A stretch of 64,000 nt of DNA from an uncultured Actinomycetes bacterium (GTDB lineage: Bacteria > Actinomycetota > Thermoleophilia > Gaiellales > Gaiellaceae): assembly GCA_963699495.1 (NCBI GenBank), contig CAVOUB010000004.1:4865-68864 (forward strand), in the 5' to 3' direction. Shown piece by piece: positions 30,204 to 34,713 of the stretch. Position 1 is the stretch's first letter. Each line of letters begins with the position of its first letter. The translations under genes were made by a program, and so were the position numbers. The notes under the pieces are model-generated. The model was given only the letters and a program-made list of their open reading frames with translations, had not been told where the DNA came from and searched no databases.

Positions 30204-30560
30204 ATGGCCCAGACCGCAAGCCATGCGGCCGAGCACGATCGGTACGAGGTGCACGAGGTTCTCGCAGGAGAGCCTGCGCTCGACCTTGGCCTCCGCTACG
30301 AGACGACCGACTTCGGCGGCGCCGTCGACTTCGCCTTCGACTATCTGGAACGGCGGGATCCGGGCCGCCAGGGCGTGGTCAGCGCACTCGAGATCGTCCG
30401 CGTCTCGGGCTCGAGGCGGGAGACCGTGTGGACGTACAGTCACGCACAGTCCCGCAGCATCGCAAGAGACCTCGTCGGCGTCTGGGGCTTCCATCCGAGC
30501 CGCGGCTGGAGCAGCCCCTACAGGACGCCGCCCAAGCCGACGCCGGCCCGCAACTACTAA
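30204..30560 (+). CDS. hypothetical protein (118 aa)
   Basis: ATG 30204 is preceded by GGAAAGGAG. Only the last 118 aa of a 478-aa track ORF look coding. No recognisable motif. Confidence 0.55.
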   Translation: MAQTASHAAEHDRYEVHEVLAGEPALDLGLRYETTDFGGAVDFAFDYLERRDPGRQGVVSALEIVRVSGSRRETVWTYSHAQSRSIARDLVGVWGFHPSRGWSSPYRTPPKPTPARNY

Positions 30561-30585
30561 TTTCCCGCCATCGAGTTCCCTGGGA

Positions 30586-30595
30586 GACTATAGTC
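30586..30595. promoter_or_regulatory. perfect 10-bp palindrome GACTATAGTC (contains a -10-like TATAGT) upstream of the XRE-fusion gene
   Basis: Read directly. It lies 45 nt upstream of ATG 30640 and is a candidate operator/promoter for the HTH protein. Confidence 0.3.
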
Positions 30596-30639
30596 GCCTA
30601 GAGGTCGAGGCCGGCGTTGGCTATCGTGATCGGGGCCGT

Positions 30640-31566
30640 ATGTCTGAGCGGGGGATGGTCGTCAGCGAGATCGTGGCGCAGCTGGTCACAGATGCGCGTC
30701 ACCAGGAAGGCCTGTCGATGGACGAGCTGGCAGACCGCGCCGGTGTTCATCGAACCTATATCGGCCTGCTCGAGCGGCGCGCGAGGCAGCCGACGCTCGC
30801 CGTGGCGGCGAACCTGGCAGAGGCCCTCGGCCTCAGCCTCTCCGAGCTCGTCGCAGAGGCCGAGCAGGATGCGAGTACCGGCTACGCGCCGGACATCGAG
30901 CTCGTCCACGCCCCGCCCAAACGAGAGGCGAGCCGACGCCACCTCGGCTCGTGCTCGCAGCTCAACGCGACGACGGGCCTGACCGGGGACATGGTGGGCC
31001 GCGCCATCGAGATCGCCTACCGGAAGCTCGACCTCGTCGACGAGCAGATGCGGGCGTCGGGCTCGCGCCCGATCGTCGGGCTGGTCGATCCTCCCGATCT
31101 GTCGTCGCTCGTCGGTGACTTGCTCAGCGCCGGCGTCGCCCGGGCCTCGAACGGCCTCTACGTGCAAAACGGCCCGGATCACTCTCCGAGCCTCCTCCCC
31201 GTGCGCCAGGGGCTGCCGGAGTCGGACGTGGCCACCGCCCTGGAGACGGACCGGCCCACCATGGGCTTCGCAAAAGCCGGCGTCCACCTCGTCTTCCGGT
31301 ACGTGCTGACCGACCGGAACGGAACATTCAAGCGGGGGAGGGACTCGCGCGGGGACACGGTCGCGGTGTGGGAGGTCAGGTTCGGCACGCTCGGGGAGGG
31401 CGACTTCCACGCCGGCTCGGTCCGAAACGGCAACTCGAGCGCCCGCTTGAAGAAGGAGGCGCTCGACCGCATGGAGCTCGTGTACTACGACCCCGCACTC
31501 CTCCCCTACGCGAAGGCAACCGGCGTCTACGCGCGCCCCGCTGAGCCGAAGCCCCGGCGTCTCTAG
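30640..31566 (+). CDS. XRE-family HTH domain fused to an uncharacterised ~230-aa C-terminal domain
   Basis: GLSMDELADRAGVHRTYIGLLERRARQPTLAVAANLAEALGLSLSEL is a canonical HTH_3. I could not assign the C-terminal part. Confidence 0.75.
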   Translation: MSERGMVVSEIVAQLVTDARHQEGLSMDELADRAGVHRTYIGLLERRARQPTLAVAANLAEALGLSLSELVAEAEQDASTGYAPDIELVHAPPKREASRRHLGSCSQLNATTGLTGDMVGRAIEIAYRKLDLVDEQMRASGSRPIVGLVDPPDLSSLVGDLLSAGVARASNGLYVQNGPDHSPSLLPVRQGLPESDVATALETDRPTMGFAKAGVHLVFRYVLTDRNGTFKRGRDSRGDTVAVWEVRFGTLGEGDFHAGSVRNGNSSARLKKEALDRMELVYYDPALLPYAKATGVYARPAEPKPRRL

Positions 31567-31576
31567 AGTTCCCTCC

Positions 31577-32242
31577 GTGCCTGCGATCTGCGTCCTCGAG
31601 GCGGAGACCATCGGCGCGGCCTGGCTCGACACGGCGCGCCAGATTCTCGCGAGCGGCGCCGAAGCCCGCTACGAGGGCGAGCCGACGAAGGAGCTCGCTG
31701 ACCTCACGATCGTCGTCGCGTCTCCCCATCCGGACGACGCGCTCATCGCCGAGCTCGGCGACCCGGAGTGGTCGGCCTGGATGCGCCGGAACTTCACCGA
31801 GCCGGCGCCCGTAGCCGAGCTCGGCGACGCGGCCAGCTACGCGACCAGGCTCTACGACTACGGCGGCCGCAACCAGATCGCGTGGGCGATCGAGCGGCTG
31901 GGCAGGGATCCGGAGTGCCGGTCGGCCACGATCACCACCTTCCAGCCCCTGACCGACACGGCGTACATCCCCTGCATCAGCCTGCTCGACTTCTGGCGGC
32001 CGGACCCCGCCGGCCCGGTCGAGCTGGTGGTCTACGCGCACAGCCTCGACTTCGGCAAGAAGGCGTACGGCAACCTGGTCGAGCTCGCCCGCCTGCACCA
32101 CCGCGTCGCGGAGGGCGTGGCAGCCGCAGTCGGACGGCTGGTCCTCCACGCCAAGTCGGCGCACGTCTACGAGGCCGAGTGGGAGCTGATGCGCGGCCTC
32201 GTCGCCGCCCAGACTCACCTGCGAGCCTCCAACCTGGCGTAG
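31577..32242 (+). CDS. thymidylate-synthase-fold protein (divergent, 221 aa)
   Basis: NQIAWAIERLGRDPECRSATITTF, IPCISLLDFW, HSLDFGKKAYGNLVELARL and KSAHVYE align by eye to the ThyA core, including the catalytic Cys. GTG start 10 nt after the upstream stop. Confidence 0.7.
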   Translation: MPAICVLEAETIGAAWLDTARQILASGAEARYEGEPTKELADLTIVVASPHPDDALIAELGDPEWSAWMRRNFTEPAPVAELGDAASYATRLYDYGGRNQIAWAIERLGRDPECRSATITTFQPLTDTAYIPCISLLDFWRPDPAGPVELVVYAHSLDFGKKAYGNLVELARLHHRVAEGVAAAVGRLVLHAKSAHVYEAEWELMRGLVAAQTHLRASNLA

Positions 32243-33325: not shown

Positions 33326-33343
33326 TCGCGCCGCGCCGGCGCC

Positions 33344-33868
33344 TCAGGTCGCGACGACGACGGCGAACCCGATCACGTAGACCAGACCGAACAGCACGGG
33401 GATCCACTGCTCGAGATGGGTGAGCGGGAGATACTTCCGCCAGTCGGCGCCCTCGCCGAGCGCGATCCACTCCGCGCGCCAATAGGGTGAGGCCGGGAGA
33501 CGCTCTTCCAGCAAGCCGACCACCTTGAACTTGGCGGAGTTCAGCTGCCGGTACGACCGCACGAGCCACCACCAGGCCGTGCACTCGCCGAGCGCGATGA
33601 CGAGGGGGAGAGCGAGGATCCACGGCGTCACATCAGGGCGCTCCTTCCCCATGACGCCGATGACGGTGAAGATGGCCGTGTTGAGCGTGAGGAAGAAGGT
33701 GTTCGTGAGACCGCGCCGGTTGCTGACCCGGTCTGCCATCTCCACGTAGATCTTCCACTGCTCCATGACGGCGGCCTGATACTTCTCGCCACCGCCCTCG
33801 TAGTCCCGGGCGGTGACGTCGGCGTTCCAGAGTCGCTCGCGGATGCGCTGGAGCTCGTCGTCGGCCAC
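33344..33868 (-). CDS. three-TM membrane protein with a ~54-aa N-terminal soluble helix; candidate effector
   Basis: TM1 TNTFFLTLNTAIFTVIGVMG, TM2 WILALPLVIALGECTAWWWLV, amphipathic linker, TM3 WIPVLFGLVYVIGFAVVVAT. GTG start 7 nt after the upstream stop. Confidence 0.7.
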   Translation of the reverse strand: MADDELQRIRERLWNADVTARDYEGGGEKYQAAVMEQWKIYVEMADRVSNRRGLTNTFFLTLNTAIFTVIGVMGKERPDVTPWILALPLVIALGECTAWWWLVRSYRQLNSAKFKVVGLLEERLPASPYWRAEWIALGEGADWRKYLPLTHLEQWIPVLFGLVYVIGFAVVVAT

Positions 33869-33875
33869 GGTTCTC

Positions 33876-34568
33876 TCAGTTCTCGAACGGCACGTACTTC
33901 GGCCACTGGGGTGGGTCCGGCGGCCGCTCCGGCGCAGGCAGCTGCGGGATCCCGCGCGCGCCCGCAGGGGCCGGAGGGAACATGTCCGCGATGCCTTCGG
34001 CCCACGGGGAGGGGTCGTCGCGAATGTCCACGGTATTCGCGTCCGTCAGCGGCTTCGGGAGAGTCGATCCCGAGTACCAGACGCCGATCATGGTCAACCA
34101 TTCGGGGGACATCTTCACGGCGTGATTCCACTCGGCCATTGCCGCACCGGTGGCCTGCGGCGACGAGATCCGCTCCATGTACTCGTCCGAGATGATCGGC
34201 ACGAAGTAATTGCAGTCGTTCATGCGTACGAGCAGGCTGAACCAGTTGAGGCCCTTGCCGAAGTTGCGCGGATCCCGATCGAAGACGATGTCGTAACCGC
34301 GGCCGAACAGGAAGCCGGCGAAGGCGTCGACCCACAGATCCGAGTCGAAGGTCTCGTACGTCTCGTCCCGGGACCAGCCGTACGAGATGAAGAGCCGCGG
34401 GGAGTCAGGGGTCGGCGGACGAAGTCGCGGGTGGTCGAGGCCCGGGTCTCCGCTCGGGTCGAGGGCGAGCTTCTCCGGATCCCAGGCCATGAAGCCGGCC
34501 TGCTTGTTCACAGCCTCGACCCGTTGCAGGAGCTGCTGGATCACAGATGGGGTTTCGGGGTTGCTCAT
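33876..34568 (-). CDS. TIR-like domain protein
   Basis: RLFISYGWSRDETY...FLFGRGYDIVFDRD...NYFVPIISDEYMERI...AMAEW resembles the TIR/STIR beta-alpha pattern. ATG 34568 is chosen because the track ORF's extra N-terminus overlaps the tRNA gene. Confidence 0.6.
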   Translation of the reverse strand: MSNPETPSVIQQLLQRVEAVNKQAGFMAWDPEKLALDPSGDPGLDHPRLRPPTPDSPRLFISYGWSRDETYETFDSDLWVDAFAGFLFGRGYDIVFDRDPRNFGKGLNWFSLLVRMNDCNYFVPIISDEYMERISSPQATGAAMAEWNHAVKMSPEWLTMIGVWYSGSTLPKPLTDANTVDIRDDPSPWAEGIADMFPPAPAGARGIPQLPAPERPPDPPQWPKYVPFEN

Positions 34569-34629
34569 GTGCCTAGGTGCGGTGAAGCGAGCCCGGGCAG
34601 GCTGCGTTCGCGGCAAGCACGACCTGCAG

Positions 34630-34713
34630 TGCGGATGAGAGGACTTGAACCTCCACGGGCTTTCGCCCACACGGACCTGAACCGTGCGCGTCTACCAATT
34701 CCGCCACATCCGC
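34630..34713 (-). tRNA. tRNA-Leu (anticodon CAG)
   Basis: Minus-strand sequence: GCGGATGTGGCGGAATTGGTAGACGCGCACGGTTCAGGTCCGTGTGGGCGAAAGCCCGTGGAGGTTCAAGTCCTCTCATCCGCA. It folds with a 7-bp acceptor stem, anticodon stem CACGG/CCGTG with loop TTCAGGT, a long variable arm GGGC-GAAA-GCCC and a T-loop TTCAAGT. CCA is not encoded. Confidence 0.95.

Follow-up and report, generated by a model that had tools for sequence, protein, structure and literature searches.

We analysed a 64,000-nucleotide (nt) stretch of contig CAVOUB010000004.1 from an uncultured actinobacterium; "the window" hereafter means this whole stretch. It has a G+C content of ~70%, and its nearest database relatives are Gaiellaceae-type Actinomycetota from soil metagenomes. 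Our subject is a compact block of six genes that abuts a tRNA-Leu(CAG) gene and that was proposed, from the letters of the DNA, to be a candidate defence system not described before (the original prediction). All six open reading frames (ORFs) listed there are present. On the plus strand lie p1 (30204..30560), encoding a conserved hypothetical protein of 118 amino acids (aa); p2 (30640..31566), a fusion of an XRE helix-turn-helix (HTH) with a PD-(D/E)xK-like domain, recognised with Pfam and Foldseek; p3 (31577..32242), encoding a short archaeal-type thymidylate synthase (TS) of 221 aa that matches PF00303; and p4 (32279-33325), in which a Pfam TIR_2 domain is followed by a ~210-aa helical C-terminal region. 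The minus strand carries p5 (33876..34568), which encodes a 230-aa TIR-domain protein (TIR_2, conserved Glu146), and p6 (33344..33868), which encodes a 174-aa protein with three transmembrane (TM) segments that Pfam assigns to the 8xMP family (PF24838). The intervals are as predicted: 10 nt between the XRE fusion and TS, 36 nt between TS and p4, and 7 nt between the p5 stop and the p6 start; 18 nt separate the stop codons of p4 and p6. ARAGORN and Rfam place the tRNA-Leu(CAG) gene on the minus strand at 34629..34713, with the block 3' of it as had been claimed. It is the right-hand anchor of a hypervariable locus.

The domain calls of the original prediction hold (HTH, TS, TIR_2 in p4, a weak TIR in p5 and three hydrophobic helices in p6), and the two TIR genes that it placed with the small membrane protein are both genuine, with the conserved Glu present. 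Its view that the block is one unit does not hold. The interval is a mosaic of a resident backbone (p1, p2 and p3), a lone TIR_2 gene (p4) and a portable two-gene cassette of 1.28 kb on the minus strand (33343..34625, delimited by nucleotide homology), in which the p5 TIR is followed by the p6 8xMP. PADLOC and PHROGs scans of the six proteins returned generic TIR, HTH and TS matches only, and no system was assigned. The tRNA is the sole Rfam match in the whole window, and a promoter and terminator scan of 30-35 kb gave nothing beyond chance level.

The p6 protein matches PF24838 with 156.7 bits against a cutoff of 30 (E = 3.9e-46, model positions 1-134 of 136) and is a member of this family, named 8xMP for octameric membrane protein. 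Its TM-like segments are at 54-72, 80-103 and 152-174. The AlphaFold2 monomer model (pLDDT 95.5) has an N-terminal helix, a long helix that runs into TM1, a TM2 that extends into the cytosol, a short helix and TM3. The near-invariant residues of the family (R51, R52, N56, Y106, K113, E121, E133 and W134) are grouped where TM1 and TM2 reach the cytosol and along the segment that links TM2 to TM3. Four of them, the conserved basic or aromatic R51, R52, Y106 and K113, sit at the cytosolic ends of TM1 and TM2, and in the model their position is only suggestive of a signal-binding face. A Foldseek search with the p6 model found no significant match in the PDB or BFVD; SLATT and DUF2270 proteins appear at E = 3.6-4.7 and were not counted. 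Searches of the PDB by sequence, with a single sequence and two profiles (A1 and A4), gave nothing below E = 0.25.

The 8xMP family comprises 2,102 database clusters, and 3,252 when clustering is done at 50% identity. Among 185,579 species genomes it has 422 matching stretches with a patchy distribution, and some genomes carry more than one copy. Plasmid-borne members occur in Cyanobacteriota, Actinomycetota, Bacillota, Proteobacteria and one haloarchaeon. Sub-threshold echoes of other families were seen among 97 diverse members, namely SLATT_1 in 6 and Rv2743c in 16. A literature search on the family name (8xMP/PF24838) turned up nothing relevant.

Translation of p5 starts at the ATG at 34568. 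A longer ORF that begins with GTG would overlap the tRNA, and the homologues begin at the same 'MS.PE.PSV'. The protein has a ~55-aa N-terminal extension, a TIR core at aa ~58-195 with a FISY motif at 60-63, and a Pro-rich tail. It scores 26 bits against TIR_2, below the cutoff of 28, and its homologues in loci L004 and L096 score 29.9 and 28.3 bits. An alignment to genuine TIR_2 domains shows F60 and S62 of the βA motif and Glu146 to be invariant, and judged by this alignment p5 is a TIR with a conserved Glu.

Ten metagenomic loci with relatives of p5 were recovered. The p5 relative precedes 8xMP in L088 and L089 and follows it in L095; in L092 and L093 the p5 relative and a 35%-identical 8xMP form a divergent pair. 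The window shares only 33343/33357-34625 with L004, L088 and L089, in which this segment stands in other contexts (~85.5% nucleotide identity), and 33327-34549 with L005 (78%). The cassette ends 4 nt short of the tRNA 3' end. p5 and p6 are functionally linked: they stay adjacent in three different arrangements and travel together as one cassette. At 4936-6525 of L004 a tRNA-Ala(TGC) gene precedes the cassette by 232 nt, and the order of tRNA, TIR and 8xMP and their orientation match those of the window; a gene for a TIR-TPR protein of 918 aa is convergent on the far side.

The link extends well beyond the p5 clade. We searched 80 fetched genome loci of 8xMP with a locally built TIR profile and counted TIR ORFs within 800 nt or 6 kb of the 8xMP gene. 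A TIR ORF lies within 800 nt in 27 of the 80 loci (upstream on the same strand in 16, divergent in 6 and downstream in 5) and within 6 kb in 6 others. Ten TIR ORFs near 8xMP were checked with Pfam; all ten match TIR_2, eight of them at or over the curated cutoff. The co-localisation with TIR genes that the original prediction suggested is therefore borne out for the membrane protein; it is not for TS homologues. The partner TIRs have diverse architectures: TIR-TM-WD40 is the commonest, and TIR-caspase, SIR2-TIR, TIR-nSTAND1, cNMP-binding-TIR and short TIRs are also found. Operons in which a ThsB-type TIR precedes 8xMP are present on plasmids of three phyla, and on plasmids of Synechococcus and Paenarthrobacter, whose independent annotation confirms the pairing, the ThsB_TIR gene overlaps the 8xMP gene by 4 nt. 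A Clostridium perfringens plasmid has a caspase-TIR-8xMP-TIR array. Two TIR genes around one 8xMP gene are found in the window, in L004 (where the TIR-TPR gene is convergent, like p4), in L046, L053 and L095, and on the C. perfringens plasmid.

No TIR ORF lies within 6 kb in the other 47 of the 80 loci, so 8xMP is not an obligate partner of TIRs and may have another or broader role. One account built on this holds that 8xMP is an ordinary membrane protein, for example in envelope stress, and that TIR genes stand beside it incidentally, as unrelated accessory genes at a hotspot. The genes around the TIR-free copies do look metabolic or regulatory, and the weak Rv2743c echoes (16 of 97 members) and the high conservation of the family point the same way. 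However, TIR genes are rare, yet a third of the 8xMP loci have an adjacent one, in four positions and with at least six architectures. The linkage recurs in Actinomycetota, Cyanobacteriota and Bacillota, frequently as genes that overlap by 4 nt, and the p5-p6 pair moves as a unit; the family is also patchy, multi-copy in some genomes and plasmid-borne. We consider incidental adjacency quite improbable.

Two sets of neighbours of 8xMP were seen in passing. In five Streptomyces/Kitasatospora loci with no adjacent TIR (L045, L057, L058, L070 and L083), 8xMP is followed on the same strand by a gene for a 163-203-aa protein with a weak DprA/SLOG-like match (PF02481, E = 7e-4), which could be an alternative nucleotide-binding partner. 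On two plasmids, pairs of TIR and caspase-family genes, such as make up type IV Thoeris, directly adjoin TIR-8xMP pairs or are interleaved with them, next to insertion sequence elements (L101, Paenarthrobacter, 56-1418; L103, C. perfringens, 2001-4314), an arrangement that suggests multi-effector TIR islands.

The boundaries of the mosaic are apparent from relatives of the window. Contig L002 (304 kb, ~80% nucleotide identity) is colinear with the window at 28630-32203 and 34628-41989. The left stretch holds a peroxiredoxin gene, an LPG-synthase-like gene, p1, the XRE fusion and TS, and the genes between TS and the tRNA differ from those of the window. Contig L085, from the same species (99.1%), matches 30180-32208, after which it runs into genes for a RibD_C-like protein, an unknown protein and a sigma factor. 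Two more distant contigs, L086 and L098, align at 76-77% over the 30-31.5 kb stretch and keep p1, the XRE fusion and the region beyond the tRNA, with other cargo between and no TS at the locus. The tRNA itself is called in L086, and window positions 34629-34737 (the tRNA and 24 nt) align to 9355-9462 of L098 at 96%. In the nearest relatives the left junction is ~34 nt ahead of the TS stop codon. The variable part begins near 32208, and its left segment (32209..33342, plus strand), delimited by the divergence point of L085, holds p4.

The backbone at 30204-32208 consists of three resident genes of a Gaiellaceae-like actinobacterial chromosome, and the statement that the block lacks housekeeping logic fails for this left half, where relatives keep p1, the XRE fusion and TS in synteny. 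Because the cargo differs across L002, L085, L086 and L098, the space between the XRE fusion and tRNA-Leu(CAG) is a recombination hotspot, with different cargo in every relative examined; in L002 and L086 it is the same tRNA that flanks this different cargo. The idea of an island at the tRNA flank was right in that the block at the 3' end of tRNA-Leu varies among strains and its presence or absence among relatives is clear. Its usual signatures are missing from the window: there is no integrase ORF in the island and no second copy of the tRNA 3' end in the window, even with 3 mismatches allowed. Nor do all six genes use more A/T-ending codons. The claim is true for p4, p1 and p5, with z-scores for G+C at third codon positions (GC3) of -1.9, -1.8 and -1.4, and false for the XRE fusion (-0.7), the TM gene (-0.2) and TS (+0.6), and the composition shift across the block is weak. 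PADLOC found no defence matches in the cargo that L002 and L085 carry instead, so the hotspot cannot be shown to be a dedicated defence island.

These relatives also bear on the proposal that the six genes together are a single defence system, not described before, which arrived at tRNA-Leu as an island. The tight packing with short gaps, the adjoining tRNA and the recurrence of the same six genes in the same-species contig L001/L084 speak for it. It is contradicted by synteny. The p1, p2 and TS genes are colinear in L002 and L085, which lack the TIR and 8xMP genes; p1 and p2 occur without TS in L086 and L098, and TS stands among pur genes in L003. At every other locus examined, homologues of TS and of the XRE fusion are without TIR or 8xMP company. 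The 80 8xMP loci and the 10 p5 loci yielded no homologue of p1, p2, p3 or p4, and the annotations of the four plasmid loci that we looked at list none. The mobile cassette loses its nucleotide homology at 33343, and the codon usage of TS is backbone-like. We regard a six-gene system as extremely improbable.

Several further observations concern the locus and its surroundings. Contig L002 has, at 11829-11862, a partial duplicate (~34 nt) of the 3' end of tRNA-Leu, ~1.5 kb from the full tRNA (13348-13432), and the two bracket three small ORFs. This duplicate is att-like, the footprint of an integrase-type insertion, and the tRNA is an integration site in the lineage. The same-species contig L001/L084 matches window 30462-34629 at 99.3% and ends exactly at the tRNA 3' end; its positions 1-8885 are unrelated sequence, with the breakpoint inside p1, which reflects either a rearrangement at the locus or an assembly break or chimera. 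Further along the window, at 56918-57082, is an element of ~165 nt that resembles a miniature inverted-repeat transposable element, with terminal inverted repeats GGAGGGTTTGGC ... GTCAAACCCTCC. It has one copy in the window and copies of 77-87% identity at other intergenic sites (L098 3316-3496 and 10019-10142; L086 4227-4353). A ~75-nt segment occurs twice in the window (21926-22000 and 22084-22160), ~160 nt apart, and a single stretch in each of L002, L086 and L098 aligns to both copies.

The second TIR of the block, p4, is a clear member of its family (TIR_2, E = 2.8e-26; domain at aa 11-125, with Glu80 in the motif WVRDE). Its sequence matches in the PDB are the bacterial TIR NADases 7uxr and AbTIR. 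Glu80 aligns to the Glu-containing W..YE motif of AbTIR-type chains, whose Glu we take to be catalytic. The ~210-aa C-terminal region is helical, with no family assigned. Beyond the same-species contig, tblastn found no p4 homologue in other loci (the 80 8xMP loci and the 10 p5 loci), and the plasmid search gave a weak match to the TIR domain only, on one plasmid. p4 lies outside the portable cassette and either stands alone as a TIR gene or serves as a second sensor TIR. Together with the decayed restriction endonuclease described below, it is the only defence-type neighbour of the cassette in the window.

TIRs paired with oligomeric membrane effectors have a precedent. Yirmiya et al. 2025 (10.64898/2025.12.03.692087) list 29 putative Thoeris types, and two of those verified have such a pairing: type V combines a TIR with a three-TM DUF2270 ring and 3'cADPR, and type VII combines a TIR with SLATT and cADPR. 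The type V pair (ThsB and ThsF, DUF2270/PF10028) resembles p5-p6 in that a TIR stands with a small three-TM protein, and the operon logic and the topology match. ThsF is a predicted ring homo-oligomer with charged cytosolic pockets that is activated by 3'cADPR. No match of p6 to PF10028 was found at E ≤ 1, and p6 is not a type V protein by this measure. PF10028 is also absent from the 25 families, out of 105, that are listed for 97 8xMP members and that include every family matched by at least two of them. In a profile search the best 150 matches listed are all strong 8xMP members, with no bridge to DUF2270 among them, and in the viral structure library a DUF2270 protein gave only a non-significant match to p6 (E = 4.7).

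The type VII and CBASS SLATT proteins (ThsH; SLATT_1, PF18181) share with p6 the pairing of a TIR with a small helical membrane protein, in which an N-terminal cytosolic helix is followed by a TM hairpin. Echoes of SLATT_1 over the region of the N-terminal helix and hairpin were found in the homologue of L092 and in the 6 of 97 members noted above; they are far below the cutoff, the best reaching E = 0.0017 and 15.5 bits against 26.3, and do not place 8xMP in type VII. What sets 8xMP apart from SLATT is its third TM helix and the conserved TM2-TM3 segment in the cytosol.

The closest counterpart is a predicted, putative effector class labelled '3TM' in the same survey (10.64898/2025.12.03.692087), in which, as in TIR-8xMP, a TIR gene lies directly beside a small three-TM protein. 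The survey makes no mention of 8xMP or PF24838. Of the three '3TM'-labelled TIRs compared (from its Table S1), two share 63-65% identity and the third 37% with the Synechococcus plasmid TIR that precedes 8xMP, and the C. perfringens plasmid TIR is 44-47% identical to its two closest '3TM' TIRs and 42% to the third. Because plasmid TIRs that precede 8xMP resemble '3TM' TIRs at 63-65%, we infer from TIR similarity that '3TM' corresponds to 8xMP. By the same comparison, what the survey predicted as the '3TM' class is most likely TIR plus 8xMP. The window p5 differs from the TIRs of that class: its clade is longer, with an N-terminal extension and a Pro-rich tail, and the portion of Table S1 searched contains neither p5-type nor TIR-WD40-type motifs. 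The claim that no described system has this content is accordingly correct for the set of six genes, which is not a unit, and probably does not extend to the pair of TIR and 8xMP.

Two hallmarks of a Thoeris-type system are present at the locus, a TIR with a conserved Glu (Glu146 of p5, Glu80 of p4) and an effector-like gene in an operon with it (the 7-nt gap in the window, three gene orders, 27 of 80 loci and the plasmid operons). By analogy with characterised Thoeris systems, p5 would convert NAD+ to an ADP-ribose-derived signal on phage infection by means of Glu146; the signal would bind an oligomeric 8xMP ring on its conserved cytosolic face of basic and aromatic residues (R51, R52, Y106 and K113); and the ring would then open or disrupt the membrane and abort the infection. 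p4 may be a second, separately acquired sensor TIR that feeds the same effector, as in Thoeris loci with several ThsB genes.

The roles could also be reversed. The p5 TIR would then be a toxic, NAD+-depleting effector and 8xMP its anchor, sensor or antitoxin-like regulator, or the two would be joined in a membrane complex with direct sensing of envelope or phage cues. NADase effectors are frequent among bacterial TIRs, the common partner TIR-TM-WD40 is itself predicted to be membrane-associated, and 8xMP has no recognisable nucleotide-sensor domain and is far more conserved than its TIR partners. However, the plasmid-borne partners are ThsB_TIR proteins that consist of a short TIR alone and belong to the Thoeris signalling clade. 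In addition, the survey (10.64898/2025.12.03.692087) lists caspase, SLATT and CMP-hydrolase effectors as partners of the same TIR clusters, and this variety of effectors per TIR cluster argues for the TIR as the interchangeable signal generator and its neighbour as the effector. We consider the reversed assignment unlikely.

Our preferred reading, which we hold to be probable, is that p5 and p6, perhaps with p4, are a two-gene (perhaps three-gene) Thoeris-like module beside unrelated resident genes. Several observations weigh against it. The p5 homologues in L090 and L096 have enough flanking sequence and no 8xMP nearby, and the majority of 8xMP loci are free of TIRs, as described above. The window p5 scores under the Pfam cutoff, and its clade differs from the TIRs associated with '3TM'; the equation of '3TM' with 8xMP is itself indirect, as it is drawn from the similarity of TIRs. 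No known ligand-binding domain (SLOG, Macro or SAVED) was detected in 8xMP, and the family is unusually conserved for a defence effector, with listed homologues 60-86% identical. More tentatively, 8xMP may be a ligand-gated ring effector that serves as a shared hub for short ThsB-type, p5-type, TIR-TM-WD40, TIR-caspase, SIR2-TIR, cNMP-TIR and TIR-STAND proteins; we think this broader proposal possible, with the odds somewhat against it.

The resident gene p2, whose C-terminal domain had been called unassignable, encodes a degenerate restriction endonuclease, as indicated by its motif and a fold match. Pfam finds HTH_3 at aa 19-70 within an HTH region of aa ~1-80, and the C-terminal PD-(D/E)xK restriction-endonuclease-like domain spans aa ~100-290. 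Full-length homologues of ~300 aa are present in Gaiellaceae (58-79% identity) and Thermomicrobiales (42-46%). The family motif 'PDLLP-x9-E[LI]E[VL]K.ALE' is retained by the Thermomicrobiales members and by some of the Gaiellaceae ones. The window protein and its nearest relatives carry it in altered form, as P183-S184 and D196-V197-A198, where other members have PD and ExK; the window copy no longer has an intact PD...(D/E)xK motif, and two of the three catalytic residues (Asp and Lys) are gone. The AlphaFold2 model (pLDDT 85) places the altered positions on consecutive β-strands (184-187 and 195-201). The best PDB matches of the HTH, by sequence and by fold (Foldseek), are the controller proteins C.BclI, C.Esp1396I and C.AhdI, and the sole long Foldseek match of the C-terminal domain is NaeI (1iaw_A, E = 1.9e-3, 184 columns).

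Homologues of p2 divergently adjoin C5 DNA_methylase genes in two unrelated Thermomicrobiales contigs (L087 and L099). No methylase was found among the window ORFs examined at 26-39 kb, nor in the Gaiellaceae relatives L086 and L098. Some Gaiellaceae relatives, such as P0309 in L098, have an intact PD...ExK and yet no methylase nearby. p2 is thus like the controller proteins and NaeI of type II restriction-modification in its HTH, its fold match, the PD...ExK motif of its family and its methylase-paired homologues, and unlike them in that HTH and nuclease are one polypeptide and the window copy is without the catalytic Asp and Lys. Its sequence identifies p2 as a controller-type HTH::restriction-endonuclease fusion with a degenerate active site, which most likely persists as a DNA-binding regulator.

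The small gene upstream, p1, is kept at the same position with 89% identity in L002, 99% in L085 and 81% in L086, and 118-aa genes are called in its place in L086 and L098. Scans with Pfam, PADLOC and NCBIfam gave no family match for p1. In the Gaiellaceae relatives (81-99% identity) it is always directly upstream of the HTH::restriction-endonuclease-like gene, which suggests that the two are a conserved two-gene unit.

The remaining resident gene, p3, scores 43.2 bits against PF00303 (Thymidylat_synt; cutoff 24.3). Its best full-length match is the ~200-aa archaeal model TIGR03283, with 82.6 bits, below the equivalog cutoff of 174.55. In the alignment Cys133 falls on the catalytic Cys of the PCH motif, and His155 replaces the Arg of the RSxD motif. 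The protein therefore has the Pfam score and the Cys of ThyA and lacks the equivalog score and the full set of dUMP-binding residues. It resembles archaeal-type TS (TIGR03283) and ThyA in the full-length match, the catalytic Cys and the nucleotide-metabolism neighbours of its relatives, and differs in the sub-equivalog score and His155. Homologues number in the thousands at 65-82% identity, and several are named as Gaiellaceae thymidylate synthase. In the 952-kb contig L003 the gene lies between purF/purL and a glutaredoxin gene, with purQ, purS, purC and purB nearby. TS is at the same locus as in the window in L002 and L085, and in L085 a RibD_C (DHFR-like) gene neighbours it. We conclude from these similarities that p3 is probably the ordinary thymidylate synthase of the lineage, with a housekeeping role in dTMP synthesis. 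The absence of TS from the locus in L086 and L098, the score below the NCBIfam equivalog cutoff and the His in place of the RSxD Arg weigh against a housekeeping role. A role as a nucleotide-modifying defence enzyme was also considered and was rejected because of synteny, codon usage and the pur-gene context. Nothing ties p3 to the TIR genes.

The block illustrates how a resident TS and a decayed restriction gene can pass for parts of a system by bordering a recombination hotspot. A dead fusion of a controller HTH with a restriction endonuclease, held at a fixed chromosomal position, is possibly a restriction enzyme recycled as a regulator. If 8xMP were indeed a shared hub, it would define a large putative Thoeris type that is especially common in Actinomycetota; the TIRs of the p5 clade might then make a signal unlike the known ones, and a convergent second TIR, such as p4 or the TIR-TPR protein of L004, might be an extra sensor for the same effector. 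No solved or predicted structural relative of 8xMP was found, and its gating mechanism would be new if this reading is true. Soil Actinomycetota are poorly covered by screens for defence systems in Escherichia coli or Bacillus, and if TIR plus 8xMP is a working Thoeris-type system, it would add a large effector family to TIR immune signalling.

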